From: Acinetobacter phage ZZ1
Strand: one strand, 5' to 3'
Sequence record: NC_018087.3
Length of the DNA: 64,000 nucleotides
Part shown: one piece after another, positions 3,755 through 48,364 of the stretch
How the letters are laid out: every line of letters starts with the position of its first letter
Numbering within the stretch: the stretch's first letter is position 1
Made by a program: the position numbers and the translations under genes
The notes under the pieces: generated by a model
Databases searched by the model: none
Told to the model about the DNA's origin: nothing
What the model saw: only the letters and a program-made list of their open reading frames with translations

Positions 3755-3990
3755 TTCTTCTCCTTGTATGATTGATACAATCGATATGGCGTCATGAGAC
3801 CAATAAGTAAATAAATTAGTAGATATACTAATGAAGAAAATAGCAATCCTATAACTGGCATTTGACCAATAAAATCGGTTTTGTTTGGACCGAATTTATG
3901 ATCATGATGACCTTCATTAACGTATCGATTCCAACTAAATGTACCTTTCAAATTTGTCTTAACAATTTTAATTAACTTTTTCATTTCCAT
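3751..3990 (-). CDS. small membrane protein (one transmembrane segment)
   Basis: 79 aa with hydrophobic stretch MPVIGLLFSSLVYLLIYLLIGLM. Confidence 0.45.
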   Translation of the reverse strand: MEMKKLIKIVKTNLKGTFSWNRYVNEGHHDHKFGPNKTDFIGQMPVIGLLFSSLVYLLIYLLIGLMTPYRLYQSYKEKK

Positions 3991-5249
3991 AACTCCAAAT
4001 ATTTGGTTTCTAAATCTTCTGGCACAAAGAAATGGCTTGCAAAAAATGCGTCCATACCTGTGACAAGATTTCGATCTTCACGAATAGACATACCACATGC
4101 TTTGTCACCAATAATCCATGAGCCAATGATCGGATAATATCCATCGTGCGGTTGAATTTCATGCCATTGTTGGTACATATAGCCCCAATGATCATATTCA
4201 GGTACTTTGTGAGAACCCGGAGCCAAATGACTAAGCTCTTCGCCAGAACAAAAATGCGAACGATAGATGTTTGAACCTTCGCGGCCATGAATTGCTTTCT
4301 TAGCATATTGACCCGATTTTGGATGATGATTCCCATCAAAACTCGCCAATAAATTAGGGTGATTAGGGAACATTTCCCATAACTTAATAAGCATTGCTTT
4401 GTTTGAAAGCAGCATTTTCCATGCGGGTTCCATCCAACGAGTGTTAGTACAGTCAAGAATGTCAGAACCAAATTTCTCTTCAGTCATCCATTCCCAAGGA
4501 TAAAGTTTAAAACAATTTTTGATCTCTTGGTCTTGAAGATCGATAAACGATTTAGTTTCAGGGCCTGTGCCAATACGTTCTTTCAAAAGACCAATATCTT
4601 GCATTTGCAATTCTTTAACAGATAAACCAGCACGAAGTGCAGAATCCATCAAATAAACTAAATTACCAAAGTCTTCATGACGGAATCCACCGCTTGATGC
4701 AAAATGAACTAATTCGCCTGGTTTAAATCGTTCCTGCCAAACTTCTTGAAGAGTTTCATCAATAAGATTATATTGAATACGCAGATCATCTGGATAATCA
4801 CGACCGTCTGGTAATTTTTGCATACTTTCAATATAATTCCATTGTGCTACAGAACATTCAAGAATTGAAACTGGAGTGTCGCCATTATACTCAAACATTT
4901 TTAATGAGTCATCAGAGCCAAAAGCAAGATCGAAACGTCCATATAATGATTTATCACCACGATTCCAAGATTGTTCAATTAAAGGAATCGAATTTTCATC
5001 CAAATTGAAGTACTCAGGATAATCACCAGATTTGATCATTTGTTCTACCATTGCATAAGACATATCGTGTAAGTCTTGTGATGCAGCTTGAATACGGTCA
5101 ATTTCACTTTCTGACATTCCATATACAACGCCTTCTTGCCAATATGGTGCAGCATCAGGTCCAGAAGGGGCATTCCAATAATTGAAGCCAATTCCCTCTA
5201 AAAGTTCAATGTGATTAGGACGGATTTCGAAATTGCTATGGCGTTTCAT
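3981..5249 (-). CDS. glutathionylspermidine synthetase-like (GspS/YgiC/YjfC family) ATP-grasp protein
   Basis: 422 aa. The motifs RFDLAFGSDD...FEYNGDTP and the overall length are characteristic of the stand-alone synthetase (pre-ATP-grasp plus ATP-grasp) family. Confidence 0.55.
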   Translation of the reverse strand: MKRHSNFEIRPNHIELLEGIGFNYWNAPSGPDAAPYWQEGVVYGMSESEIDRIQAASQDLHDMSYAMVEQMIKSGDYPEYFNLDENSIPLIEQSWNRGDKSLYGRFDLAFGSDDSLKMFEYNGDTPVSILECSVAQWNYIESMQKLPDGRDYPDDLRIQYNLIDETLQEVWQERFKPGELVHFASSGGFRHEDFGNLVYLMDSALRAGLSVKELQMQDIGLLKERIGTGPETKSFIDLQDQEIKNCFKLYPWEWMTEEKFGSDILDCTNTRWMEPAWKMLLSNKAMLIKLWEMFPNHPNLLASFDGNHHPKSGQYAKKAIHGREGSNIYRSHFCSGEELSHLAPGSHKVPEYDHWGYMYQQWHEIQPHDGYYPIIGSWIIGDKACGMSIREDRNLVTGMDAFFASHFFVPEDLETKYLELWK

Positions 5250-5606: not shown

Positions 5607-5625
5607 AAGGGCCGAAGCCCTTAAT
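5607..5625 (-). terminator. rho-independent terminator (aagggc-cgaa-gccctt)
   Basis: Hairpin at 5607-5622 followed on the minus strand by a T-run, directly after the stop at 5628. Confidence 0.55.
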
Positions 5626-6156: not shown

Positions 6157-6498
6157 CTAGATATCAATAGAAGAGAATTGTGCAATAATAGTCAAACCTA
6201 CTGAAATGAAGATAAGACCGACCCATGCACCAAGGTCTAAATTTTGATTAAGCATTATTTTTGCAAGAAATGCAGTAGCAACGGCACCAAGGCCTGACCA
6301 CATAACATACAATATACCAGCTTGCATATATTTTAATGCGATAACACAAGCAATAAATGATCCAGTATATAATATTGCACCAATTATAAGAGGTCCAATA
6401 TTATTAAAACCGTCTGCCTTTGCCATATAAATGGTTGATATTACATCAGTGGCTATTGCTACCAATAGCCACATTACACCTATTTGACTAGATGTCAT
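6157..6498 (-). CDS. small multidrug resistance (SMR/EmrE/SugE-like) family membrane protein
   Basis: 113 aa with four predicted TM helices. TM1 motif IATDVISTIYMAKADGF aligns to EmrE ILAEVIGTTLMKFSEGF, with Asp in place of Glu14. TM3 motif YVMWSGLGAV matches EmrE YAIWSGVGIV. ATGA overlap with the upstream gene. Confidence 0.6.
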   Translation of the reverse strand: MTSSQIGVMWLLVAIATDVISTIYMAKADGFNNIGPLIIGAILYTGSFIACVIALKYMQAGILYVMWSGLGAVATAFLAKIMLNQNLDLGAWVGLIFISVGLTIIAQFSSIDI

Positions 6499-6851
6499 TT
6501 GAATTCACCCAAAACATTATATGCCTTTTTAAGCCATTCATCACGAGTCAAATAAGGGCCAATATCCGATGTAAATAACTTGATGACTTTCCATGTACGT
6601 TCAGTATAACGAGAGTATGACCAATCAGCAAATAATCCAATCCCTGATTCATCCATATCTGGTTTTTTAATACCAAAAATACGACGAATAGTTCGGGATT
6701 CAGATACATCACCCCACTCGTCAGTAGACCATCCAAATGTTTTGCCGATAACACATGTTTTATATTCACCCATACTAAATTCAGTATCTTGAGGTAATTG
6801 TTCAACAGCTTCAATAGCACGGATAAGGCCGTTAATTAAATTAACTTTCAT
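6495..6851 (-). CDS. hypothetical protein
   Basis: 118 aa. Translationally coupled (ATGA) to the SMR gene. Confidence 0.5.
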   Translation of the reverse strand: MKVNLINGLIRAIEAVEQLPQDTEFSMGEYKTCVIGKTFGWSTDEWGDVSESRTIRRIFGIKKPDMDESGIGLFADWSYSRYTERTWKVIKLFTSDIGPYLTRDEWLKKAYNVLGEFK

Positions 6852-6898
6852 TTTGATTTGCTCATGTTATTTGGTATGTTCATATAATAATAAAAAAT

Positions 6899-6920
6899 CC
6901 AGGCTATGTACATAGCCTGG
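6899..6920 (-). terminator. palindromic terminator hairpin CCAGGCTATGTACATAGCCTGG (member of a repeated hairpin family)
   Basis: Perfect 22-nt palindrome, flanked by A6 upstream and T-run downstream on the minus strand, directly after the rnlB stop at 6936. Confidence 0.65.
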
Positions 6921-6935
6921 ACAAAAATATTTTAA

Positions 6936-7955
6936 TTATTCTACTTTATGCACAGCAAAATCTTGTTCAGTCCAATATTCACGCACATCAACTTGAACAA
7001 TTTTCTGCAATTCGCCCTTAAGTTTAGATGGAGCTTCTGCTTGATTAATACTAATACCTTCACGTTCAGCTTCAGTAAGTAGATCGTGCATTGTCATACC
7101 TAAAAGTTTACCAAACATTTTTGGATTTAATTCACCAATATGTGAGGCGACATTTGAAATACGAGCTTTTGTTGAAAACTCTGATAACTTATTCAAAAGG
7201 TCTTTATCTGCTTCCGATAAAGGTACCGGAATTTTAGGTAATTTACCTTTACCCTTTTCTTTAAATTTATCAGTTTTGTATTTGATGGCAACACGTGAAC
7301 CGTTATTTAAAAACAATGGGTATACAGGTTTAATAACAAGACCTTCACCTACATTATCAGTTGGAGCTGGTTGTGCATGATAACCATACATATTGTCCCA
7401 AGTTAATGATGGTACAATTGTATTAAATTCAACAGGCAATTTAAGAAGTTGTTCCAAACTACCATGGGCAATTAAAGGCGCAATTTTTAAACCATGATGT
7501 TCACAAAATGCTTGCACACTACGGTCATCCCACCAACCATTTGAAATTCCTGCCGCCGGCGCATCTAAAAAGATATCGAAAACATAAAATGATTTTGGAC
7601 CATAATCAACTTCTTTTTGAATATTACCACCAGCATATTCACCAAAGATTTGCATTGAATTCCAACCGTCGCCATTATCAATAAGTAATTTTTGAACAGC
7701 TTTAAATACATCATCCAAATCTTTCATTACATCTTCATAACCAAAGAATTTTTCAGTTGGGCCGATTGGCCCTGAACGTTTACAAGCTTGAATGTTGTCT
7801 TTAGTAATGATAATTGAGAAGTTTGTACCATGGATTTTTTCACGGGCCACAAATTCACATGCATTGCCACCATTTTGAGCAGCAACATCAAAACAGGCCT
7901 GGATGAATTTACCATTAGTATGATTTTCAAGGCTTGAATATTTTTTAAAAGTCAT
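6936..7955 (-). CDS. rnlB: RNA ligase 2 (T4 Rnl2-type)
   Basis: 339 aa. The N-terminus MTFKKYSSLENHTNGKF and the nucleotidyltransferase motif I REKIHGTNFS closely parallel T4 Rnl2 (MFKKYSSLENHYN...AREKIHGTNFS). Confidence 0.8.
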   Translation of the reverse strand: MTFKKYSSLENHTNGKFIQACFDVAAQNGGNACEFVAREKIHGTNFSIIITKDNIQACKRSGPIGPTEKFFGYEDVMKDLDDVFKAVQKLLIDNGDGWNSMQIFGEYAGGNIQKEVDYGPKSFYVFDIFLDAPAAGISNGWWDDRSVQAFCEHHGLKIAPLIAHGSLEQLLKLPVEFNTIVPSLTWDNMYGYHAQPAPTDNVGEGLVIKPVYPLFLNNGSRVAIKYKTDKFKEKGKGKLPKIPVPLSEADKDLLNKLSEFSTKARISNVASHIGELNPKMFGKLLGMTMHDLLTEAEREGISINQAEAPSKLKGELQKIVQVDVREYWTEQDFAVHKVE

Positions 7956-8604: not shown

Positions 8605-9044
8605 TTTTCGCCTCCAGGTTTTTGTGGTTTTGGCGTACCGCGCACAACTAATCCAATTACTGGTGTATTAGCATTAGTTGTTACATTGATACCTCGGGTA
8701 AAACGAATACAATAAACAACTTCAGCATCTAATATATTTGCAACACTATCACTACCTGTCGTTAAACTACCCATCCAGCTTTTAACCGAAACAAATTCGC
8801 CCATGTCATTTACATATGTTGGGTCATCAACAAATTTAATGCCTGACGCTTTTAATTCAGCATATTTTGGAAATTCATTACGCATCTTAATAATCTGGTC
8901 TTTAAATTGACCCAAGTATTGATCATAGACTTTTTTACCGTCTCCAAACGTAATATAGCCGTTAATAGCATCATTAAATGTTTTAATGAGATTATTGTAA
9001 ATTTCGGCATTTAAAGGTACTGCACGTTTTACTACTTTAACCAT
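8580..9044 (-). CDS. hypothetical protein (paralogous to 7992..8369)
   Basis: 154 aa. EIYNNLIKTFNDAINGY versus DVYNTFIKSFNDAIKLA in the paralog. Confidence 0.5.
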   Translation of the reverse strand: MVKVVKRAVPLNAEIYNNLIKTFNDAINGYITFGDGKKVYDQYLGQFKDQIIKMRNEFPKYAELKASGIKFVDDPTYVNDMGEFVSVKSWMGSLTTGSDSVANILDAEVVYCIRFTRGINVTTNANTPVIGLVVRGTPKPQKPGGEKCLNLMRN

Positions 9045-9065
9045 TTTAAATCTCCATAGTGGATG

Positions 9066-10892
9066 TCAAGAAGACATCCACTCTTTACGAAGTTCTGCAT
9101 TTTTACCTAACAACATTTCAAATTGTGTTTCCCATGATTCTGGTAATTTAACAACTTCGAAATATGGTTCGTTAATAACGCGTTCATATTCACTTTCTTC
9201 AAGTGAACCAAGTCCTTTGATATATCGACAAGTATAACCTTTAAGACTATCTTTATCGGCATCATATTCTTCTGATGTGTAATACCATTTTTGGTCTTTA
9301 CCCTTTTGACAAATCCAAACAGGTGTTTTTACAAATTTAATTCGGCCTTGTTCAAATAATTCAGGCCAATTACTGAAGAATGCAAGCAACGACGGGTAAA
9401 TTGAACCGGTACCATCAACATCGGCATCTGTCATAATCGCAACATTGCGATAATTAAGGCTATCAGCTTTTTCGCCAATAGTTAACCCCATAATCGCACA
9501 AATATCAAAGATTTCTTTATTCTTTAACATATCTGTTGCGGATAAGCCCCAGGTATTAAGAACTTTACCGCGTAACGGATATCCGCCATGTAATTCACGA
9601 TTACGTGTTGAAATTAAATAACCAATTGCAGAATCACCTTCTGTTAAAAACAGAGTTGTTTCTTTTTGATCATTACCATAACCATTTGCTTTAATATGCT
9701 TAGATACTTTGGCTTTAGCAGCAGCTTTATTTGCTTTGGTTTCTGCAGCCTTTTCTGCGGCAAGCTTACGTGCAAGAACAGCTTCAATAATTGGCATTAA
9801 AATATCTTCATTTGCCATAAACTGCTTAGCAATTTTCTTGATATCAATATCAATATGAGATTTAACTTCACCCGCCGGAGATGTTAAACGTTCTTTAGTT
9901 TGTGAATCAAACCGTAAATTCTTCATATCTTTTAAGAATAATAATACGGTTACACATTCTTTAATTCTGGCCTTATTAACATCAATTTTATATTTGCGTT
10001 TAATTGATGGGATAAGTTCATTTGCCAATTCATCCATTACATAATCAAGATGTGAACCACCCACTTTTGTATGAATAGCATTTACATATGATAAGTGACG
10101 GAATCCATCTTCCGAACGACCAATTGCAAATTGCACATTATCAGTTTCTGCTGTAATCGCAGATTCATCATATTGTTTTGCATATTTTTTAAAATTACCT
10201 TGAACTTTTTTACCATTAAATTTAAATTCAATTTCAGGGTAAACAACAGCCAATGTTTGCATTTGATCTTCAATAATTTGAACAATTACATCATCGATCG
10301 CATCGCATTCAAAATGACTAAAGTCTGGGGTAAATTTAACTTCAGTACCCTGCGTTTGTTTTGCATATACTTTTTGTGTCCAATCAATATTGTCCATATT
10401 ATTGACACAATGAACAATTAATGTTTGTTCCCCATCACATGTTGTACCAATAAATTCTTTTGAAAAAATATTAGTTAAAGATGACCCAACACCATTCATG
10501 CCTGAAGTTTTACGTTCAGAATCATCACCAAAATTACCACCGGCTTTTGTGCGTGTCCATGCTGCTACAGCACCAGGAATTTCTGTACCTTCGGGCGTTG
10601 TAATCATTGCTTGTGGAATACCACGTCCATTATCTGTTACAGTTACCCAATTATCTTTAATTGTGACTGCGATTTTATTTGCGTATTGGAAATTAGTACG
10701 AACCGCTTCATCAATTGAGTTATCACGAATTTCTTCAATTAATTTTACAATTGCCGGAACATATTTTAATTTTGTAAATTTACCAAATAAGAATCGATCA
10801 TATTCTTCATTTGAGGTAGAACCTACATACATACCAGGTCGTTTTAAGACGTGCTCTTTATCAGATAACATCTTAATTTCATTCTTGATCAT
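9066..10892 (-). CDS. 39: DNA topoisomerase II large subunit (T4 gp39 and gp60 fused, GyrB-like)
   Basis: 608 aa. GHKL ATPase motifs (ERKTSGMNGVGSSLTN) and Toprim motifs (LFLTEGDSA, IMTDADVDG). A single continuous ORF, as in most T4 relatives other than T4 itself. Confidence 0.85.
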   Translation of the reverse strand: MIKNEIKMLSDKEHVLKRPGMYVGSTSNEEYDRFLFGKFTKLKYVPAIVKLIEEIRDNSIDEAVRTNFQYANKIAVTIKDNWVTVTDNGRGIPQAMITTPEGTEIPGAVAAWTRTKAGGNFGDDSERKTSGMNGVGSSLTNIFSKEFIGTTCDGEQTLIVHCVNNMDNIDWTQKVYAKQTQGTEVKFTPDFSHFECDAIDDVIVQIIEDQMQTLAVVYPEIEFKFNGKKVQGNFKKYAKQYDESAITAETDNVQFAIGRSEDGFRHLSYVNAIHTKVGGSHLDYVMDELANELIPSIKRKYKIDVNKARIKECVTVLLFLKDMKNLRFDSQTKERLTSPAGEVKSHIDIDIKKIAKQFMANEDILMPIIEAVLARKLAAEKAAETKANKAAAKAKVSKHIKANGYGNDQKETTLFLTEGDSAIGYLISTRNRELHGGYPLRGKVLNTWGLSATDMLKNKEIFDICAIMGLTIGEKADSLNYRNVAIMTDADVDGTGSIYPSLLAFFSNWPELFEQGRIKFVKTPVWICQKGKDQKWYYTSEEYDADKDSLKGYTCRYIKGLGSLEESEYERVINEPYFEVVKLPESWETQFEMLLGKNAELRKEWMSS

Positions 10893-12315: not shown

Positions 12316-12352
12316 TTTAAAATCCTCATATAAGTTAATCTTATTATAAATT

Positions 12353-12384
12353 AAAAAAGGCCGTATGTAAACGGCCTTTTTATT
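12353..12384 (-). terminator. rho-independent terminator (ggccgt-atgtaa-acggcc plus T-run)
   Basis: aaaaaaggccgtatgtaaacggcctttttatt, immediately after the dexA stop at 12383. Confidence 0.6.
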
Positions 12385-20243: not shown

Positions 20244-20288
20244 AACAATTAACTCACTATGGCTGATGCTTATTATAATACGAAAAAA

Positions 20289-20312
20289 GGGAACCCATGT
20301 AAATAGGTTCCC
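20289..20312 (-). terminator. rho-independent terminator (gggaacc-catgtaaata-ggttccc)
   Basis: Hairpin after the stop at 20323, followed by T-rich sequence on the minus strand. Confidence 0.55.
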
Positions 20313-20322
20313 TAAAAATATT

Positions 20323-24322: not shown

Positions 24323-24404
24323 AACAATATACTCATCAGATTATGCAAGTATTATATAATGAATTTTTTTAAATGTACACTAAAAAAGGCCCGAAGGCCT
24401 TAAT

Positions 24405-24821
24405 TTATTTCAAAAATGTATTGAATCGTTTGATATGATCTTCTGCATCATCAATTGTATCAAATGGTTCATAATTAAGAGTATGATCATCAAAACGAAT
24501 TCCATCGCTAGTTGTAGTACATCCGACAATCATATAATACCAATCATCAAGATGTGATACTGAATAAATCACATAGCTGTTAATTACAGGTTTACCGTCA
24601 CGAGCGTCTGCCGTAATTTTAGTAATATGATTTTCAGCAATATGACGAAGGGCAATAAGAGGGAAATGTTGTTTTAAAGCAGTAAGCAATTCTTGGTTTG
24701 TTGGAACATTGATAGTTAATGATTTCATAATATTTTCCTCAAGTGTATCAGTGTATCTGATGTAATCATTATAAACCAGGTTAAAAATAAAGTAAACTGT
24801 TAAATGAAAAAAGGCGCTCAT
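24405..24821 (-). CDS. hypothetical protein
   Basis: 138-aa ORF. Confidence 0.45.
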   Translation of the reverse strand: MSAFFHLTVYFIFNLVYNDYIRYTDTLEENIMKSLTINVPTNQELLTALKQHFPLIALRHIAENHITKITADARDGKPVINSYVIYSVSHLDDWYYMIVGCTTTSDGIRFDDHTLNYEPFDTIDDAEDHIKRFNTFLK

Positions 24822-24836
24822 TGAGCGCCTTTATTT

Positions 24837-28188: not shown

Positions 28189-28686
28189 TTATTCTATCGA
28201 GATTTCAAAGTCTTGTACACTGTTTTTAGAAATTTTATCCGTAATAAAATCTGCGCAAATTTTGGCTATTTCTAAATCGGATTTCCCACGCACAGCTAAT
28301 GCTTCGTAAGATTCTGTAATTGCCTGAATTAGCATAAAGTCGCTAGATGAAAATTCCTTTAAAAACTTTTTGGCCTTTGCAAAATTAGCTTGCTTAATAA
28401 TTTGCAAACATTTATCAAACCATTGTTGTTTAATATAGTCTTCATCAATAGCAAGAGTTAAGTGCCGAGCTATATCAAATGAAACTCGAGGATTAACATC
28501 TTCAAAGTTCATAAGATTAAGAGTTACTTTATGCTCATCTTCTTTGCTTGGCTCAATTTCAAGTCGTTTAATATCCGATAATCGAATAATACCAAATGGG
28601 TCATTTGCTTCAAGAATCGCATAAACATTACGAGCTATTTGTTGAATTTGATCTTTTGATTCAACATACTGATTTAAAACGTCCAT
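28189..28686 (-). CDS. hypothetical protein
   Basis: 165-aa ORF. Confidence 0.45.
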   Translation of the reverse strand: MDVLNQYVESKDQIQQIARNVYAILEANDPFGIIRLSDIKRLEIEPSKEDEHKVTLNLMNFEDVNPRVSFDIARHLTLAIDEDYIKQQWFDKCLQIIKQANFAKAKKFLKEFSSSDFMLIQAITESYEALAVRGKSDLEIAKICADFITDKISKNSVQDFEISIE

Positions 28687-31274: not shown

Positions 31275-32315
31275 CTATGATTTATCAAATTTGCCGATTG
31301 TACGTAAATAATTTTCGATTTCATAATCTTTAAAATTACTTTTCATATCCATCATCTTTAAAAATGACATATATGAATCATAACATTTAATTGGTGCAAT
31401 AAATCCACCACCATGATTTATCATAGAATCTGCTACTTGTTTGTAAGATGCAAAAATATAATCCATATGTGCCGAAATTTCTTTGTAGCGATCGGCAAGT
31501 TCTTTGGCCTTTGTTGACGCGAAAGCTTCAGCCCAAATAATTTTAGGTGAATCAATTTCAACCCATGATGAATCTTTAGGCCCTAATTCATTTAATGTAT
31601 TAATAGCTTTTCTTAAAAAGCTTTCTCTTTCTTCGCGAAAGCTACATTTAAATTCAATATGTTCTACAAGGCCATTAACTAATTTATAAATGTTTAATGA
31701 ACCGGCATCAGCTTTAATAATAATATTATCCTTTTTCCAATATTTCCCATCATTAAATCCATACGCTTTATATCGTTTATGGCGATATGGCTTAATAATA
31801 AGGTCTTGATTATCGATAAGAGTTTCAATAATTTCAAAACACCCTTCCACCGATAATAATTTTTCATTTTTAGGGCAAAGTTCCATAGGATTTAAGCCCG
31901 CGACATGAGGGGTATATTTACTTCTTGATATTGTTATATTCAAGTTAAAAGGTATATTATCATTAGAAATATCAAGAGCCCATTGAAAACTAATAGATAC
32001 TAATCCTCCTTTACCGTCGGGCATATTATGTAAATTAATAGTTTTAAAATCAAGTTCATATACATAAATGCTATTGGAATTCATATTATATTTTGAATTC
32101 CATTTTATTGATGAGTCATTTAACAATTCATATAATTTATTAAATCGAATTACAATTGGGTCATTTTTTAAATCGACTTTCGGGGTATATGTAAATACTT
32201 TTTCTGTACCAAATGGGAAAAAGTCGATAACATGTAAACTATCGGATATATTTTGCCATTTATTAGATTCTTTGCGGTTATTTGTACCAAATAAAAATTC
32301 ACTAAACCAACTCAT
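31275..32315 (-). CDS. hypothetical protein (about 346 aa; start revised to the ATG at 32315)
   Basis: Track start at 32396 is a GTG and overlaps a coupled small ORF. The ATG at 32315 (MSWFSEF...) is preceded by TGAGGAT. Confidence 0.5.
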   Translation of the reverse strand: MSWFSEFLFGTNNRKESNKWQNISDSLHVIDFFPFGTEKVFTYTPKVDLKNDPIVIRFNKLYELLNDSSIKWNSKYNMNSNSIYVYELDFKTINLHNMPDGKGGLVSISFQWALDISNDNIPFNLNITISRSKYTPHVAGLNPMELCPKNEKLLSVEGCFEIIETLIDNQDLIIKPYRHKRYKAYGFNDGKYWKKDNIIIKADAGSLNIYKLVNGLVEHIEFKCSFREERESFLRKAINTLNELGPKDSSWVEIDSPKIIWAEAFASTKAKELADRYKEISAHMDYIFASYKQVADSMINHGGGFIAPIKCYDSYMSFLKMMDMKSNFKDYEIENYLRTIGKFDKS

Positions 32316-32496: not shown

Positions 32497-32807
32497 ATTT
32501 CCTCAACAAAAGACCAGGCTGCGTGATATACGCTAGCGCCTTTAGTATCATTCATACAAACCATATCAACAGGACATACTACGCGATAAATCTTTGGTTC
32601 ACCGCCAAATTGATTACATGCACGTCCGGCATAAACTTTAGCCAAACCAAGATCAGCAGTAAAGAACACGCGATCAAGATTTTTATTACGACCTTTTTCT
32701 GATAAAGTATCAGATACAATAGGAGGTAACAACATGTTTTCAATTCCACACGCACTTGAAGAGCCGTGATAAAACACTTTAACTTCAGCAGGAAATAAAT
32801 TGACCAT
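32493..32807 (-). CDS. Tpt1/KptA C-lobe-like (NAD-binding ADP-ribosyltransferase-fold) protein, tentative
   Basis: 104 aa. FPAEVKVFYHGSSS, DRVFFTADLGLAKVYAGR and PKIYRV parallel E. coli KptA [36 protein letters not shown] and PVILTV. The N-terminal RNA-binding lobe is absent. Confidence 0.35.
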   Translation of the reverse strand: MVNLFPAEVKVFYHGSSSACGIENMLLPPIVSDTLSEKGRNKNLDRVFFTADLGLAKVYAGRACNQFGGEPKIYRVVCPVDMVCMNDTKGASVYHAAWSFVEEI

Positions 32808-33932: not shown

Positions 33933-34325
33933 TTATTTCATTACATGAATTTCAAAGTATACTTGTTTCATATTTGTATGATCATCAAAATCTACATTAT
34001 GACGCATTACACTTACTTCAAAGCTAGCTTTACCTCGTGAATTAAAAAATTCTAAGCTAGTATTATTATTTGTTTCATAGTTAACCATACCGCCCATGTT
34101 TTTAAGTTCAGTTTTGATTTCTTCTAAACGATTTGTAATAGCATTTTGAGTAATATCGTCAATTGCCATATCAGCATTATAAATTACACCAGCAGAAATC
34201 ATACGCACTAATTTACCTGCAGTATCTCTAAGGGCACAACGTTTTTGATTTGAATCAATCACATACACAGTTTCTTTAGGACATACTTTGTTTAACTGGC
34301 TTAATACTTGGCGTTGATTTAACAT
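33933..34325 (-). CDS. hypothetical protein
   Basis: 130-aa ORF. Confidence 0.45.
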   Translation of the reverse strand: MLNQRQVLSQLNKVCPKETVYVIDSNQKRCALRDTAGKLVRMISAGVIYNADMAIDDITQNAITNRLEEIKTELKNMGGMVNYETNNNTSLEFFNSRGKASFEVSVMRHNVDFDDHTNMKQVYFEIHVMK

Positions 34326-34381
34326 TTTAATTTCCTCATTTAAAATGCTTTATTGCATTTGATGTAGCCATTATAGTAAAA

Positions 34382-34405
34382 AAGGTTATGCTTGTACATA
34401 ACCTT
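34382..34405 (-). terminator. terminator hairpin aaggttatg-cttgta-cataacctt (variant of the TATGTACATA hairpin family)
   Basis: Lies after the stop at 34421, flanked by an A-run and a T-run. Confidence 0.5.
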
Positions 34406-34420
34406 TTGAATAATTTTTAA

Positions 34421-34894
34421 TCATTTAAACCATTTTGGTGGATTACGTTTAGACCACTTCGCAAGATGTGCTTTCTCATTTGAATATAAGCTACGATAGT
34501 GTTTAACTGCATTTTGATAATGAATTTTGCCTGGCATAACTGCTACAAATTCAGTTAATTTATTTTTACCCACAGGAATACGTTCGATTGAATCAATAAG
34601 TTCAGGAATTAAACGCGAACTTGCATGTACTTTTCCATAACGATGCGTGTATTCGGCAAATAATTCAATAACCAAATTTAATAAGTATTCAAAATTTTGG
34701 CGAGATTCCATAACCCAAAGTACGCTTGGATGATTTTTATGTGTTGCTTTATATAAAGTTTCGCTTTCAATTCCATTTAAACGACATACCGTAGAAAGAA
34801 TTTGGCAATATTCGACACACATTTTAACAACGTGTTTATCACAATGTGCTTGTGCATTGAAAGATGGATTCACATCAAAAAGAAAAATATTCAT
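34421..34894 (-). CDS. hypothetical protein (all-alpha, Cys/His-rich N-terminus)
   Basis: 157-aa ORF. Confidence 0.5.
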   Translation of the reverse strand: MNIFLFDVNPSFNAQAHCDKHVVKMCVEYCQILSTVCRLNGIESETLYKATHKNHPSVLWVMESRQNFEYLLNLVIELFAEYTHRYGKVHASSRLIPELIDSIERIPVGKNKLTEFVAVMPGKIHYQNAVKHYRSLYSNEKAHLAKWSKRNPPKWFK

Positions 34895-34904
34895 ATTAAA
34901 TTAC

Positions 34905-35447
34905 TCACTTAAATTTTGTAAATGTAATCAAACGGATTATACGGTCACATTCCGAGATTAGAAAATCAACTGCGTTCCAACGAGCGTTATTAAGCCATAT
35001 TGTACCACGTCTTGATTCATGATCAAACTCTCTTTTACCTCCAATTGGATATGCAAGTTGACCATAATGACAATTCCAACCGTCAAAAGCATCGCGAGTT
35101 TGTTTGGCTAAAGCTAATCGGTGCAAAGGAACTGCACCGCAAATACCGCGAGATAACGATACGGTATTTTCTAAGCTTTTAATATAAACGCGATATGATT
35201 TTTTATCATGTCTTACAGAGCATTCCTGTAAAATATCTTTAGCTTGAACTAAAGATACTAATTGTGTTTTAAGAGCTTCCATTTCGGCAACTGTTATACA
35301 ATCAATACCATATAACTTAATTTCCGTATTTCGCATTGTTTTTGCACGATATCGTGTATATGAACCATCATATTTTTCAATGGATTGTAAAATATAAACT
35401 TCTCCGCGGTACAAAACTTTTGTACCTAATGGTATTTTGTCATACAT
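34905..35447 (-). CDS. hypothetical protein, member 3 of the YPxGG...LWLNxxRW paralog family
   Basis: 180 aa. LAYPIGGKREF...GTIWLNNARWNAVDF. Confidence 0.5.
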   Translation of the reverse strand: MYDKIPLGTKVLYRGEVYILQSIEKYDGSYTRYRAKTMRNTEIKLYGIDCITVAEMEALKTQLVSLVQAKDILQECSVRHDKKSYRVYIKSLENTVSLSRGICGAVPLHRLALAKQTRDAFDGWNCHYGQLAYPIGGKREFDHESRRGTIWLNNARWNAVDFLISECDRIIRLITFTKFK

Positions 35448-35493
35448 TTCAATTTACTCATCATTAATTGATATAATCTATAATACTAAAAAA

Positions 35494-35517
35494 CCAGGGT
35501 TATGTACATAACCCTGG
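35494..35517 (-). terminator. palindromic terminator hairpin CCAGGGTTATGTACATAACCCTGG
   Basis: Perfect 24-nt palindrome flanked by A6 and T-rich sequence, after the stop at 35527. Confidence 0.6.
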
Positions 35518-35526
35518 TCCTTATTT

Positions 35527-35685
35527 TTAACCTAAAATATTGTATTTGGTTAACAATTGATCAATAATCAAATACCATCCTATAGGAGGAAATAAAACTG
35601 CACCTAATGTCCACCAAAATCCTTTGGCGATAACAATACCTGCAATATAAACAATAAATGCAAAAAGTCTAACTAATGCGCTCAT
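35527..35685 (-). CDS. small membrane protein (52 aa), below the ORF-track cutoff
   Basis: Manual translation gives MSALVRLFAFIVYIAGIVIAKGFWWTLGAVLFPPIGWYLIIDQLLTKYNILG. ATGA overlap with the upstream gene (35682-35685). Confidence 0.4.
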   Translation of the reverse strand: MSALVRLFAFIVYIAGIVIAKGFWWTLGAVLFPPIGWYLIIDQLLTKYNILG

Positions 35686-37293: not shown

Positions 37294-37352
37294 GATATTT
37301 TCCTCTAAGACGTGTCAAATTATTTTAAACCAAAATACCTCTTATGTACATA

Positions 37353-40270: not shown

Positions 40271-40321
40271 AATGGCACCTCAATTAATATAAAAATTATA
40301 TCATACCCTTATAAAAAGCAA

Positions 40322-40341
40322 AAAGACCCGAAGGTCTTTTT
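40322..40341 (-). terminator. rho-independent terminator (aagacc-cgaa-ggtctt)
   Basis: aaaagacccgaaggtcttttt, after the stop at 40340. Confidence 0.55.
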
Positions 40342-40666
40342 AAAAGAAGAATGATTTTTTAACGCGCCGTGGATTTGGTGCAGGCTCATTTAAGGCCAAC
40401 TGAGTTAAAGCAGCTTCAACATGTTTTCCTAATTCATCTTTGCGATCCGTAGAAGGCGTACTAAAGTCTAAAGAAATACGACCTGAGACATCAACATCGC
40501 ACCCATGAATATAAACGATATGATGTGTATCGTCTTCAAGGGTGATAACCATTTCATGCTTAACATCTTTCATGGCATCTTTGATGATATCAAATGATTG
40601 ATTGAATAAGTTATCACCCGGAGTATATGTATGCGTTTCTGTTACAATTTCTGAATCTGTGCTCAT
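40340..40666 (-). CDS. hypothetical protein
   Basis: 108-aa ORF. Confidence 0.45.
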   Translation of the reverse strand: MSTDSEIVTETHTYTPGDNLFNQSFDIIKDAMKDVKHEMVITLEDDTHHIVYIHGCDVDVSGRISLDFSTPSTDRKDELGKHVEAALTQLALNEPAPNPRRVKKSFFF

Positions 40667-42983: not shown

Positions 42984-43306
42984 AATTTTTTCTCCCGAGC
43001 ATCTACATGGATGATACGGATATTATTTGCATCGGGATATACTTCCCAACGATAGTTTTCCCAATTTTCAAGAAGTACATTATCAATTTTTGCAACGCCC
43101 ATATATCCTTGGTATGCATCCCAACAAGTTTTATCTTTAATTGGTTCATCGGAACTAAACACTGCGATTGAACCATCCTTGTCGATTGCAAGCCATTTTG
43201 CATTCTTTGGTATATAAATTGTATGATCAATGCCTTCAGGCGACCATTCAGTTTTTAATCGAAGAATAACTTGAGGCGGAGTATATAGATTTTTAAAAAT
43301 TGCCAT
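42980..43306 (-). CDS. hypothetical protein (paralogous to 22440..22748)
   Basis: 108-aa ORF. Confidence 0.45.
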   Translation of the reverse strand: MAIFKNLYTPPQVILRLKTEWSPEGIDHTIYIPKNAKWLAIDKDGSIAVFSSDEPIKDKTCWDAYQGYMGVAKIDNVLLENWENYRWEVYPDANNIRIIHVDAREKKL

Positions 43307-43352
43307 AATAAAATTCTCAAATTTGTATCTTGAATATAATATTACTAAAAAT

Positions 43353-43376
43353 CCAGGACTATGTACATAGTCCTGG
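43353..43376 (-). terminator. palindromic terminator hairpin CCAGGACTATGTACATAGTCCTGG
   Basis: Perfect 24-nt palindrome flanked by an A-run and T-rich sequence, after the stop at 43387. Confidence 0.6.
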
Positions 43377-43386
43377 ATAATTTATT

Positions 43387-43698
43387 TCAACTTTTTTCTA
43401 TGAATCGTATTTTATACTCTTCACAAATTTTATCCGCCGTATTAAAAGCTTGTGTTGGAGTAGAACCATCTTTTAATCTACTTAATACGGATGTTAACCA
43501 TATCGGGCCCAAATCAGGATGTTCTCGTTTAGGCTTGTTAATAGAATCAAACTCTTTTGCTCGACGCTTTGCATCATAAACCTGAGCATCCGATACAATC
43601 ATAGTAGTTCTACATTTTCGACAACGGACTTGCGGAGGATTACTCAACAAGACCGAATTGTAGTTAAAATCATGAACACATGTTTCTTGATTTGCCAT
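43387..43698 (-). CDS. hypothetical zinc-ribbon protein (CxxxxxxC...CRKC)
   Basis: 103 aa. 4-nt overlap with the upstream polymerase ORF. Confidence 0.45.
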   Translation of the reverse strand: MANQETCVHDFNYNSVLLSNPPQVRCRKCRTTMIVSDAQVYDAKRRAKEFDSINKPKREHPDLGPIWLTSVLSRLKDGSTPTQAFNTADKICEEYKIRFIEKS

Positions 43699-43700
43699 AA

Positions 43701-44885
43701 TTAGAATCCAAAAATATCTTCAAGCGATGCCCGCTTTTCAAATTTAAGCCCTGCTGCGTCACTCATTGCCTCTAGAGGTTTTTTGAATGATTTCGCAAAC
43801 ATTTCTGCCGTATCAATATGACGTAAAACATCATCTCGAATTTCTTTTGGTAAATCATTACCAGACGGCCAAGCCATAACTTTTTCACCAAATGGATTAC
43901 CCTGTTTGAGTGGGATAACCATAACTTTTTCGCCTTCCATAATATCAGGAAGACCTTGGAATTTTTTAATTGCTCGTTTATATGCAAGTACACCACGAAT
44001 ATGACCAGGACATTTTAATCCAGGGAATCCTTTATCGTCATATTTTGCAATATTGTTTGCTGCTGATACTTTAGCAACCACCTTATAATCCAATTTACGG
44101 AATTCTGCATCAAATTCCTTATAATATTCTTGTAAAGATGATTCACCTTCTTGTAACATACGACGAACAGCTTCATATAATGCATCTTTAACCGCTTTTG
44201 GTGTAGATGATTTTTGTGTTTCCAGCCCCATGATTTTTAAATATGGTTCTTTAAAACGCACGCCTTCCATGTCGTATACATTTAATGCATAACGTTTCTT
44301 CGCGGTCCAGAATGCACCAATACCGTCAGAACCTAATGGTGGGCATGCAATTGCTTCGCGGTCCATAAACATTAATTGTTCATAATTGTTTAAGTATTCG
44401 CACATTTCAGCAAAGCCTGCATTAATAACAGGTTCGATCTTTTTAGATGCAACAGCATCCAAGAAATCTACAAGTTGTTCAGTTGTTGTAAATCGGTCCA
44501 ACCCAACCTTTTCAATCAATGGTGATAGTTCAAGATATAATGAATCAGTATCACCATAAATGACATATGCATGATTTGTAGTACCACACATCTCATTCAA
44601 ATATGCGTTAATCTTTCGTTCGGTCCATTGTAATACAAGTTGACCAAAAATAGTAATAGCTTCTGCATTTCGAAGATCATAAAAGCGGAACCAAATATTA
44701 CCCAATGCACCATAAAGTGAGTTAATCAATAATTTACGGTTAATCTGATTCGTGTCACATAATGTAATATAGTCTTCGCATTGGTCTTCTAACGCAATAA
44801 GTTCTTCTTGCGAAAGTGTCTGCAAATATGCAATTTCTTCTTCTGTAAAGTCCCGGCTAAAGTCAAGAACCATATCATACTCCAA
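43701..44885 (-). CDS. 43: DNA polymerase (family B, T4 gp43) C-terminal portion, 43B
   Basis: 394 aa. Motif B KLLINSLYGALG, motif C YGDTDS and the C-terminal ...ASLEDIFGF are collinear with T4 gp43 residues from about 490 to the end. Confidence 0.85.
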   Translation of the reverse strand: MEYDMVLDFSRDFTEEEIAYLQTLSQEELIALEDQCEDYITLCDTNQINRKLLINSLYGALGNIWFRFYDLRNAEAITIFGQLVLQWTERKINAYLNEMCGTTNHAYVIYGDTDSLYLELSPLIEKVGLDRFTTTEQLVDFLDAVASKKIEPVINAGFAEMCEYLNNYEQLMFMDREAIACPPLGSDGIGAFWTAKKRYALNVYDMEGVRFKEPYLKIMGLETQKSSTPKAVKDALYEAVRRMLQEGESSLQEYYKEFDAEFRKLDYKVVAKVSAANNIAKYDDKGFPGLKCPGHIRGVLAYKRAIKKFQGLPDIMEGEKVMVIPLKQGNPFGEKVMAWPSGNDLPKEIRDDVLRHIDTAEMFAKSFKKPLEAMSDAAGLKFEKRASLEDIFGF

Positions 44886-46789: not shown

Positions 46790-48298
46790 TTATTTAATTA
46801 ATTTTTTAATTATTTCTGCATTACGTTCTGCAGTCTTCATTTTCTTCTTCCATTCTTTACGTTGGAAGAAAACTTTAGCTGTTTCACGTGGAATCACACC
46901 TTGTTTGGTCTTATCATACATCATGCCACTCGGTGAACATGAATAACGATCAGAAGGTTTCTTAGCAATTCGTCCAATATAGTCTGCTAAAGGTGCCGGT
47001 GCAAATTGGCCAGCAATTGTTTCTGGACTAATATTAACTTGTCGAATAATCGATGGGTAAAGTGATGTTACGTCAAATGATACAACATACTTATATGCCC
47101 CAGGTTTTGGTTCTTTAACAAATGCACCTGCATATGGTTGTCGTACATTAGATTTGGTTTCCGGTAACACCAAATGATCAGGTTTCAATGAGTTAAAAAT
47201 AATCGCATCCCAGGTTTTTACTGGACTCATTACACCTTGAATATTCATTTTAGCATAATAACCCATCGAAATAGATAGATTAATAAATCCACGCTTCATA
47301 TCAATAGCTTGTACACAGTATACGTCTACAATGTTATATGAAATATAACGCTGATGATTTGTACTTCGTAATTTATTAATTGGACCATCATATGCCAATT
47401 TATTGATTTTTGCTTCATACTCTGCAATATAATCAAGTTTATATGTAGGCTGAGTAGTAAATGAGAACTTTTTATAAAGATCAATATAATCTAAAATTTG
47501 AACACCTGAAATACTAAAAATTTCAGCGTCACCATACATATTTGTAATTGTCTTAGATGTAATACGACCAAATGGACTCATTTTTTTCATATAAGAAACG
47601 CCGAGTACGTTCTTAATACGATTTAATAAGTACGGGATATCAAACCCTTCAATATTCCATCCTGTGAAAATAACGGGAGGTTTTTCTTCCCAAAGACGAA
47701 CATATTCTTGCAGCATTTCATGTTCAGTATCAAATGCGAAGTATACAACTTTATCTAAAATATGTTGTGGGACTTCATCACCACCTTCAGACTCAGGCAA
47801 AGCTGCTTTAATACGATCCCAGGGTTCAACACGCCCATCGCTAGAATTTAATAAATCAAATACATAATACTTATCATCTATCGAATCATAATGCGTAATA
47901 GCATCAATTTCGTATTTTGCAAATGCAGGCTCAGGGAACTCAGGTGCTGTTACCTCAATGTCACAATTGGCAACACGAATCGCTTTGCGGTCATATGTGA
48001 TATCTGAATTATATGTGTCAGAAATATAGGCTAGTTTAAAATCGTCCATGCCTAAAATTTCAACAATACCACGAGTCTTTTGGGCCCATTCTTTTGCTGC
48101 ACGAATAGATGTAAATTCTTTTGGTAAACACGGTTTACCATAAATGTCTTTATGCTTAGTTACAGTACCTTCTTTTGCATGAATAAACAATGTTGGTTCA
48201 TATGCAACTTCACGACGTTTTTCAATACCATCTTCAATATAACGTTCCTGAATTAAATCACCGGATTGTTCTACTACTAGATAAAAAGTATTACTCAT
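46790..48298 (-). CDS. 43: DNA polymerase (family B, T4 gp43) N-terminal portion, 43A (3'-5' exonuclease domain plus motif A)
   Basis: 502 aa. Exo motifs (FDIEVT...) and motif A FDVTSLYPSIIRQVNISPETIAGQF are nearly identical to T4 DLTSLYPSIIRQVNISPETIRGQF. The ORF ends at ...NAEIIKKLIK, corresponding to about T4 residue 475. Confidence 0.85.
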   Translation of the reverse strand: MSNTFYLVVEQSGDLIQERYIEDGIEKRREVAYEPTLFIHAKEGTVTKHKDIYGKPCLPKEFTSIRAAKEWAQKTRGIVEILGMDDFKLAYISDTYNSDITYDRKAIRVANCDIEVTAPEFPEPAFAKYEIDAITHYDSIDDKYYVFDLLNSSDGRVEPWDRIKAALPESEGGDEVPQHILDKVVYFAFDTEHEMLQEYVRLWEEKPPVIFTGWNIEGFDIPYLLNRIKNVLGVSYMKKMSPFGRITSKTITNMYGDAEIFSISGVQILDYIDLYKKFSFTTQPTYKLDYIAEYEAKINKLAYDGPINKLRSTNHQRYISYNIVDVYCVQAIDMKRGFINLSISMGYYAKMNIQGVMSPVKTWDAIIFNSLKPDHLVLPETKSNVRQPYAGAFVKEPKPGAYKYVVSFDVTSLYPSIIRQVNISPETIAGQFAPAPLADYIGRIAKKPSDRYSCSPSGMMYDKTKQGVIPRETAKVFFQRKEWKKKMKTAERNAEIIKKLIK

Positions 48299-48340
48299 AT
48301 TTTAATCCTCATCAAGATATACTAATTATAAAATAAAAAA

Positions 48341-48359
48341 GGGGAAAGCAACTTTCCCC
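48341..48359 (-). terminator. rho-independent terminator (ggggaaag-caa-ctttcccc)
   Basis: aaaaaaggggaaagcaactttcccctttt, after the stop at 48365. Confidence 0.55.
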
Positions 48360-48364
48360 TTTTA

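Follow-up and report, generated by a model that had tools for sequence, protein, structure and literature searches.

The palindromic hairpins in the early, minus-strand region of this T4-like phage are very probably compact cassettes that join a terminator to an early promoter. As RNA, the stem and its run of U (U5-6) would constitute an intrinsic terminator that ends the transcript of the upstream gene, and the hairpin probably stabilises that transcript as well. As DNA, the same 45 bp would recruit the host sigma-70 RNA polymerase to transcribe the downstream gene. The model gives each part of the element a task: T(G/T)TACA at the hairpin apex would serve as the -35 element, the 3' arm of the stem together with the T-run would make up the 17-nt promoter spacer, TA(T/A)(T/A)AT would serve as the -10 element, and ~25 nt of 5' untranslated region, in which TGAG is the putative Shine-Dalgarno sequence, would lead to the ATG. 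Where the hexamer is the self-complementary TGTACA, its ends would pair to complete the stem, with GUAC left as the loop. By the T4 paradigm, the cassettes would be early and AsiA-sensitive in their timing.

The palindromes and their setting

The DNA analysed here (the window) is a stretch of 64,000 nucleotides. The phages W16 (vB_AbaSt_W16) and Henu6 (Straboviridae, Twarogvirinae, Zedzedvirus zz1) are 98-99.9% identical to it and, judged from its sequence, the source of the window is a T4-like Acinetobacter phage. Of the phage genome the window covers the part with early and replication genes, from rIIA as far as those for the split DNA polymerase and the clamp loader. Within its first 50 kb every annotated gene lies on the minus strand and no plus-strand gene is annotated. 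MotA-like, AsiA-like, Alt and Alc proteins are encoded in the genome, which points to a T4-style transcription programme. We compared the window with the near-identical W16 and Henu6, and with Maestro (Hadassahvirus), PhT2 and two Lazarusvirus phages. Four palindromes were the starting point, each with minus-strand ORFs on both sides:

6899-6920, site 1: CCAGGCTATGTACATAGCCTGG, perfect palindrome; upstream ORF (minus) 6936-7955, downstream ORF starting at 6851
35494-35517, site 2: CCAGGGTTATGTACATAACCCTGG, perfect palindrome; upstream ORF (minus) 35527-35685, downstream ORF starting at 35447
43353-43376, site 3: CCAGGACTATGTACATAGTCCTGG, perfect palindrome; upstream ORF (minus) 43387-43698, downstream ORF starting at 43306
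34382-34405, site 4: aaggttatgcttgtacataacctt, related copy; upstream ORF (minus) 34421-34894, downstream ORF starting at 34325

The sequence-only reading of this DNA had placed three perfect palindromes and a related fourth copy immediately after minus-strand stop codons. All four coordinates are exact; the perfect palindromes of sites 1-3 measure 22-24 nt, and every site is intergenic, 9-15 nt past the stop codon of a minus-strand ORF. The inner-stem positions that vary between copies had been called strictly complementary, and they are (C/G, GT/AC and AC/GT). A pattern search had been proposed for chance frequency and for occurrences in coding sequence. The 10-mer core TATGTACATA occurs 4 times in the window against 0.14 expected, a count that none of 100 shuffles reaches, and the chance expectation of the full gapped palindrome pattern is 0.00. 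One of these four, at 37343-37352, was missing from the sequence-only reading and has no stem; it is intergenic with a -10 box 17 nt downstream, so that the core occurs as a predicted promoter element independently of the stem. In cassette 4 the 10-mer is broken and TGTACA-N17-TATAAT is kept.

The family is larger than first described. Two more hairpins of the same build, at 12354-12381 and 20288-20313, carry TTTACA in place of TGTACA, and a seventh, also with TTTACA, lies slightly outside the window, near 118 kb in W16. The TGTACA copies of Zedzedvirus are perfect palindromes and the TTTACA copies are not because only TGTACA is self-complementary. Scanning IMG/VR for the CCAGG-core-CCTGG pattern gave no match, and the compared loci yielded only the three copies that W16 has in its equivalent of the window; the CCAGG subfamily is lineage-specific. 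The pattern TATGTACATA-N15-TAWWAT has at least 119 matches in IMG/VR, mostly single (three contigs have two) and on unrelated contigs, about what chance would seem to give in so large a collection. Promoter or terminator needs do not account for the CCAGG/CCTGG outer stem in three copies, and the more likely reason that they have it in common is common descent of these cassettes. An Rfam 15 search of the whole window returned no match at or above the gathering score, and a search for relatives of the 108-aa ORF downstream of site 3 found none.

The predicted promoter and terminator halves of the cassettes

The cassettes and related promoters discussed below are the following; -35 and -10 elements are predicted throughout.

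6849..6938 (-): cassette 1, from the RNA ligase 2 stop to the ATG of a 118-aa ORF; hairpin 6897-6922 (dG -17.2 kcal/mol, z -5.3), -35 TGTACA 6907-6912, -10 TATTAT 6884-6889, TGAG 6861-6864, ATG 6849-6851
35445..35529 (-): cassette 2, from the stop of a 52-aa membrane-protein ORF to the ATG of a 180-aa ORF; hairpin 35489-35522 (dG -19.8 kcal/mol, z -5.4), -35 TGTACA 35503-35508, -10 TATTAT 35480-35485, TGAG 35457-35460, ATG 35445-35447
43304..43389 (-): cassette 3, from the stop of a 103-aa ORF (below DNA polymerase fragment 43B) to the ATG of the 108-aa ORF; hairpin 43351-43378 (dG -18.7 kcal/mol, z -5.8), -35 TGTACA 43362-43367, -10 TAATAT 43339-43344, TGAG 43316-43319, ATG 43304-43306
34323..34423 (-): cassette 4, from the stop of a 157-aa ORF to the ATG of a 130-aa ORF; hairpin 34380-34407 (AAAAGGTTATGT/GCATAACCTTTT; dG -13.2 kcal/mol, z -5.7), -35 TGTACA 34393-34398, -10 TATAAT 34370-34375, ATG 34323-34325
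12343..12381 (-): TTTACA cassette after exonuclease A (dexA); hairpin 12354-12381 (dG -15.8 kcal/mol, z -4.9), -35 12366-12371 in the loop, -10 TATAAT 12343-12348
20275..20313 (-): TTTACA cassette; hairpin 20288-20313 (dG -16.2 kcal/mol, z -4.6), -35 20298-20303 at the apex, -10 TATTAT 20275-20280
37322..37350 (-): early promoter without hairpin, carrying the full TATGTACATA core (37343-37352); -10 TAAAAT 37322-37327
24351..24401 (-): upstream-type cassette; UUCG-loop terminator 24386-24401, then -35 TGTACA 24374-24379 and -10 TATAAT 24351-24356
28191..28219 (-): candidate early promoter, TGTACA-N17-TAGAAT, with no hairpin and no palindromic flanks

On the coding (minus) strand of sites 1-4, TGTACA is followed after exactly 17 nt by TATTAT, TATTAT, TAATAT and TATAAT, respectively. 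The invariant centre of the palindromes is most likely the -35 hexamer of a predicted sigma-70-type early promoter. TGTACA is a variant of the T4-type TTTACA and agrees with the canonical TTGACA at four of six positions; all Maestro promoters have TTTAC(A/T) and none has TGTACA. The pattern TKTACW-N17-TAWWAT is found 14 times in the window, against 1.12 expected for both strands together, and all 14 matches are on the minus strand, intergenic and upstream of ORFs; six of these promoters have the -35 hexamer at a hairpin apex. The pattern TGTACA-N17-TANNNT has 8 matches against 1.31 expected, and TGTACA stands at the same spacing with no enclosing hairpin at 24351-24379, 28191-28219 and 37322-37350, the first two without TA flanks. 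Every match to TGTACA-N17-TANNNT being on the minus strand, a divergent plus-strand promoter on the palindromic -35 box is ruled out. A middle promoter with a MotA box is likewise ruled out at the four sites, which have no TGCTT and have the spacing of a -35 box. Cruciform extrusion of the DNA could impair a promoter that lies within a perfect palindrome.

The sequence-only reading had argued that the core goes beyond what a terminator needs and had suggested a protein-binding site. The excess is real and a protein-binding site is most likely, but the proposal of a dedicated regulator or nuclease does not, the predicted partner being the host sigma-70. The reading had also described a -10-like box (TATTATAT/TATAAT) and a ribosome-binding region after each hairpin. 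Both are present; the conserved string that it gave, ATGAG(T/G)AAA, is exact at only two of the four sites, and the invariant part is TGAG, 8-9 nt and ATG. Aligning seven cassettes leaves T-TACA, the T-run, TA..AT, TGAG and ATG as the only invariant columns, in AT-rich 5' flanks. The three CCAGG copies each have 32 nt from the -10 box to the ATG. A second subfamily has the linker TTTTTTCATTTA in common between the hairpin and the -35 box; in 24351-24401, TTTTAG stands between the UUCG-loop terminator and TGTACA-N17-TATAAT.

The terminator half of the cassettes is equally regular. The stems comprise 9-15 pairs with a G+C-rich base, and on the transcribed strand five or six T come next; the short loop completes the features of an intrinsic (Rho-independent) terminator, and termination is predicted from them. 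The six hairpins that enclose a -35 box fold with dG of -13.2 to -19.8 kcal/mol (z -4.6 to -5.8), no shuffle folds as well, and five or six U come directly after each of them on the minus strand, so the description of the sites as terminator-like hairpins is borne out. A scan for the minus-strand terminator consensus flags sites 1 and 3 together with the hairpins at 12354-12381 and 20288-20313. For sites 2 and 4 the scan gives plus-strand rows only, and the minus-strand TTTTTT directly after the stem is seen in the sequence and the folds. The idea that each hairpin terminates in both directions finds no support: on the plus strand of sites 1-4 a T-rich stretch begins 5-9 nt past the stem and no T-run abuts it, and the genes here are all minus-strand genes. 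A lenient plus-strand scan flagged three of the four sites, site 1 being the exception. The window terminators that do not enclose a -35 box have other loops, three of them UUCG (5607-5622, 24386-24401 and 40319-40342), which fits an apex set, in the enclosing hairpins, by something besides folding.

Covariation and the alternative readings

Comparison between strains and between genera separates the loop from the stem. Cassette 1 is identical in W16 and Henu6, and in W16, relative to which the window is shifted by +94 nt after an indel, the palindromic hairpins are intergenic too. Site 3 differs from W16 and Henu6 by exactly two nucleotides over 121 nt, an A-to-G change in the 5' arm and a T-to-C change in the 3' arm; these two positions pair with each other, so that an A-T pair becomes a G-C pair in one compensatory change. 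Maestro keeps the build at four of six cassette positions: after rnlB, where the equivalent of cassette 1 is found; after the 52-aa membrane-protein gene homologous to that of cassette 2 (31913-31955, with TTTACT in the loop); after the ORF below gp43B; and after dexA (9038-9077). At the ORF below gp43B the build is also kept in PhT2 and the two Lazarusvirus phages. The orthologous hairpins of the other genera carry TTTACA or TTTACT in their loops, each with a -10 box at a distance of 17 nt downstream, and their stems are unrelated to those of the window; this includes the Hadassahvirus and Lazarusvirus orthologues of cassette 3. Between Hadassahvirus and Lazarusvirus the stem again shows compensatory changes (GGCTAAAG/CTTTAGCC against AGCGAAAG/CTTTCGCT). 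We take the covariation evidence from these strain- and genus-level comparisons, since the paralogous hairpins were chosen for forming hairpins and a formal test on them is circular. This pattern is expected if protein recognition holds the loop constant and the stem is constrained by pairing alone: the centre would be invariant because polymerase recognition fixes the loop positions, and the stems would change compensatorily because their positions need only stay paired.

Two other explanations of the conserved centre have to be weighed against this model. It is very unlikely that the TATGTACATA core is an operator for a dimeric DNA-binding protein of phage or host (a repressor, activator or nuclease) that co-regulates or cuts at these sites, with the promoter-like spacing secondary. 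The core is indeed a perfect 10-bp palindrome in excess of chance (4 against 0.14), and the stemless copy at 37343-37352 retains all ten bases. But palindromy, which should be conserved wherever a palindromic operator occurs, is not. Hairpins of identical build have the non-palindromic TTTACA (12354-12381 and 20288-20313), as TTTACA or TTTACT stands at the orthologous sites of other genera, the TGTACA promoters at 24351-24379 and 28191-28219 lack TA flanks, and cassette 4 breaks the 10-mer yet keeps TGTACA-N17-TATAAT. A -35 box and the need for pairing already account for all conserved positions, and given TTTACA in hairpins of identical build a palindromic operator explains nothing extra. That the palindromes are plain intrinsic terminators, whose centre is an inherited similarity among recent duplicates with no function of its own, is extremely unlikely, even though the hairpin and T-run strongly match a terminator and the three CCAGG copies look related by descent and are confined to this phage lineage (no match in IMG/VR). 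Neutral decay would give the opposite of what is seen, a centre conserved while stems diverge, also between genera; in addition, the spacing to the -10 box is exactly 17 nt in every case, the bias of strand and intergenic position is strict (14/14), and the hexamer is found as a -35 box outside hairpins as well.

Recombination is a different matter, as it overlaps with the terminator-promoter model and may be an additional role of the same cassettes. The sequence-only reading had suggested a recombination hotspot that drives module exchange, and some examples are suggestive. In Maestro, gene 006 is flanked by two cassettes with the -35 box in the loop, and here one cassette, site 1, lies between the same neighbours. 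Between site 2 and its homologue of Maestro gene 067 the window has seven ORFs and Maestro one, with the break at the cassette, and synteny breaks relative to Maestro coincide with five of the six embedded cassettes. Two cassettes with different terminator halves and unrelated proteins, that at 2941-2969 and that at ~118 kb in W16, are 95% identical over a 58-nt block that extends from the -10 box to codon 5. The three CCAGG copies have the stem base and the 32-nt distance from -10 box to ATG in common, and for the phages RB49 and phi1 a model of this kind, with mini-circles, has been demonstrated (PMC2839356). Against these stand the persistence of the build at orthologous sites in different genera, which speaks for a function maintained there, and the absence of significant enrichment of cassette junctions at synteny breaks against Maestro (12/14 vs 65/84, Fisher p=0.73), a test that fails to reach significance because most junctions in this hyperplastic region are breaks. 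None of the indels examined between the window, W16 and Henu6 has a breakpoint in a hairpin. One is the loss from W16 of ORF 33933-34325, immediately downstream of site 4, and this deletion has a ribosome-binding-site repeat, TGAGGAAATTAAAATG, at its boundaries; of two others among the three near-identical genomes, one coincides with a short repeat in coding sequence and the other consists of a GIY-YIG homing-endonuclease gene.

A recombinational role of the cassettes is plausible by analogy. That the palindromes are primarily hotspots moving gene cassettes, by short homology, cruciform cutting or a dedicated recombinase, with terminator and promoter activity incidental, is unlikely. We consider it quite unlikely, too, that the 22-24 bp Zedzedvirus palindromes, besides carrying terminator and -35 box, act as DNA, as a cruciform or a dimeric protein site, and so drive site-directed exchange of the genes that lie between neighbouring copies, or their excision. 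One such case would be a 1.1-kb circle joining 35494-35517 and 34382-34405, direct repeats 1.1 kb apart with two ORFs between them. If this were true, the members of the CCAGG subfamily would form a mobile cassette system peculiar to this lineage and not a passive regulatory signal.

Relation to promoter-early stem-loops

Elements of the same composition have been described in T4-like phages as promoter-early stem-loops, or PeSLs (Arbiol et al. 2010, PMC2839356; Comeau et al. 2014, PMC4122927). Their parts are a stop codon, an AT-rich stretch, a stem-loop terminator, a sigma-70-type promoter, a Shine-Dalgarno sequence and an ATG (PMC2839356, PMC4122927). Five subclasses are distinguished by the position of the stem-loop, one of which overlaps the -35 box (PMC2839356), and the promoter consensus in T4 and the Yersinia phage PST is TTTACW-N17-TAYWAT (PMC4122927). 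PeSLs have been observed to border the plastic gene 43 locus, and the hypothesis that they recombine is already published (PMC2839356, PMC4122927). The palindromes studied here match PeSL-type cassettes of the subclass whose stem-loop overlaps the -35 box, as far as sequence can tell: they occupy intergenic, same-strand sites in a T4-like genome, with a sigma-70-type promoter predicted, a stable stem-loop, AT-rich upstream DNA and a 3' Shine-Dalgarno sequence with ATG. They are also repeated, with 14 predicted promoters in the window and 6 embedded -35 boxes; their associations with variable genes and indels are anecdotal.

The PeSLs of RB49 and phi1 and the cassettes of the window have in common an intergenic position in T4-like phages, the same order of parts, many repeats in early hyperplastic regions and a place at the border of the gene 43 locus (here site 3, just below gp43B). 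They differ in the promoter, near-perfect TTGACA/TATAAT in RB49 and phi1 whereas the -35 box here is T(G/T)TACA, and in the stems, typically polyG/polyC there and mixed here, for example CCAGG. The -35 box is exactly at the apex in 6 of 14 promoters here, and RB49 and phi1 have the subclass with overlap of the -35 box. Promoter activity, terminator activity and mini-circles were shown experimentally for RB49 and phi1; for the cassettes described here, promoter and terminator activity are predicted from sequence. The PeSLs of T4 and PST are closer in their consensus, which is essentially the same as ours, and both have AT-rich surroundings and a 3' Shine-Dalgarno sequence with start codon; the PST stem-loops, however, lie just upstream of the promoter and those of the window around the -35 box, and the TGTACA variant is outside the consensus sequences given for T4 and PST (PMC4122927).

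Canonical terminators of the T4 type also combine a G+C-rich stem with a U-run, but they close it with a stable tetraloop such as UUCG, whereas here a conserved hexamer doubles as a predicted promoter element and the T-run lies inside its spacer. The promoter-middle stem-loops (PmSLs) of Vibrio phage nt-1 (PMC4122927) are likewise composite cassettes of stem-loop and promoter; they have a TGCTT box at the -30 position, whereas sites 1-4 have a -35-type hexamer at 17-nt spacing. The window also holds a possible PmSL counterpart, the hairpin 48337-48363, with a MotA-box-like TTGCTTT in its loop and TATAAT 13 nt later.

Our literature search for PeSLs in Acinetobacter phages found no paper describing them. 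The Maestro record annotates the equivalent sites as plain terminators, and in the stretches examined the W16 and Henu6 records annotate no such features. No new mechanism is revealed by the cassettes, which are of the known PeSL kind with the palindromic -35 variant as a local twist. With the promoter model, the invariant centre within a covarying stem would be explained without any new factor. The PeSL concept would extend to the subfamily Twarogvirinae, with the -35-at-apex build at orthologous positions across three genera, and a sequence-based map of early transcription units becomes available for a group of therapeutic Acinetobacter baumannii phages. The 45-bp elements are candidates for compact insulator-promoter parts and may offer natural insertion points for phage engineering.

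Mosaic cassettes and the predicted early promoters of Maestro

The 58-nt block TATAATAACTACATCAAATGAACAAACACTGAGTAAATTATCATGGC..., starting at the −10 box and reaching codon 5, is common to two cassettes of terminator hairpin and sigma-70-type early promoter that lie ~61 kb apart, with 95% identity between the 2941-2998 region of the window and positions ~985-1040 of L003, a stretch of the near-identical phage W16. The terminator halves of these two cassettes differ, and the downstream proteins are unrelated. A second subfamily presents the hairpin, then the conserved linker TTTTTTCATTTA with 4-5 further bases, and then the −35 hexamer T(G/T)TAC(A/T). We found these members:

Window 2985, minus strand: linker-subfamily cassette
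Window 24811, minus strand: linker-subfamily cassette
W16 L003 2452: linker-subfamily cassette

The 138-aa ORF 24405-24821, annotated likewise in W16, engulfs both the terminator at 24810-24832 and the promoter at 24768-24796; its true start is probably a downstream ATG, giving a protein of 107 aa.

In positions 1-50000 of the Hadassahvirus phage Maestro, about 24 promoters of the form TTTAC(A/T)-N17-TATAAT were located on the coding (minus) strand, compared with one on the opposite strand. Their −10 boxes include one TACTAT and one TATTAT, many share a conserved extension past the −10 box (TATAAT-AGTYCTAT), and none of the ~24 in this stretch uses TGTACA as its −35.

The DNA polymerase locus

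Two cistrons for DNA polymerase are present in the window (43701-44873 and 46790-48298), with six small ORFs in the ~1.9 kb between them. A split DNA polymerase gene is known in T4-like phages of Acinetobacter and Aeromonas; some records label the gene as intron-interrupted instead. Upstream of the 46790-48298 cistron lies the following element:

48337-48363, minus strand: terminator-like hairpin AAAAGGGGAAAG-TTG-CTTTCCCCTTTT, upstream of ORF 46790-48298 (DNA polymerase fragment 43A)

The apex of this hairpin reads TTGCTTT and is MotA-box-like, and a TATAAT follows 13 nt past it on the minus strand. Judged from its sequence, the hairpin could be a middle-promoter counterpart to the cassettes that carry the early −35 hexamer in the loop, similar to the promoter-middle stem-loop (PmSL) of Vibrio phage nt-1.

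Gene content, gain and loss

Two genes, named according to the W16 and Henu6 records, are without a tblastn homologue in Maestro positions 1-50000:

6157-6498: small multidrug-resistance (QacE-like) membrane-protein gene
3981-5249: glutathionylspermidine synthase gene

Structural differences also separate the window from its near-identical relatives. W16 (L001 31991-32836) and Henu6 (L005 32088-32985) carry an insertion of ~0.85-0.9 kb that the window lacks at ~32497-32521, and the W16 copy encodes a GIY-YIG homing endonuclease (GGIYKIVNTINNKVYIGSAKNF...). Conversely, both lack the 204-bp segment 26282-26485; on either side of it stands the direct repeat GGTAAATGAAGATGC, where gene ends overlap. 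In W16, at L001 ~34224-34247, the 130-aa ORF 33933-34325, which lies immediately downstream of the −35-in-loop hairpin at 34382-34405, is precisely missing. At both edges of this deletion stands the direct repeat TGAGGAAATTAAAATG, which comprises a Shine-Dalgarno sequence and ATG; gene gain or loss at this position therefore used a translation-initiation repeat.
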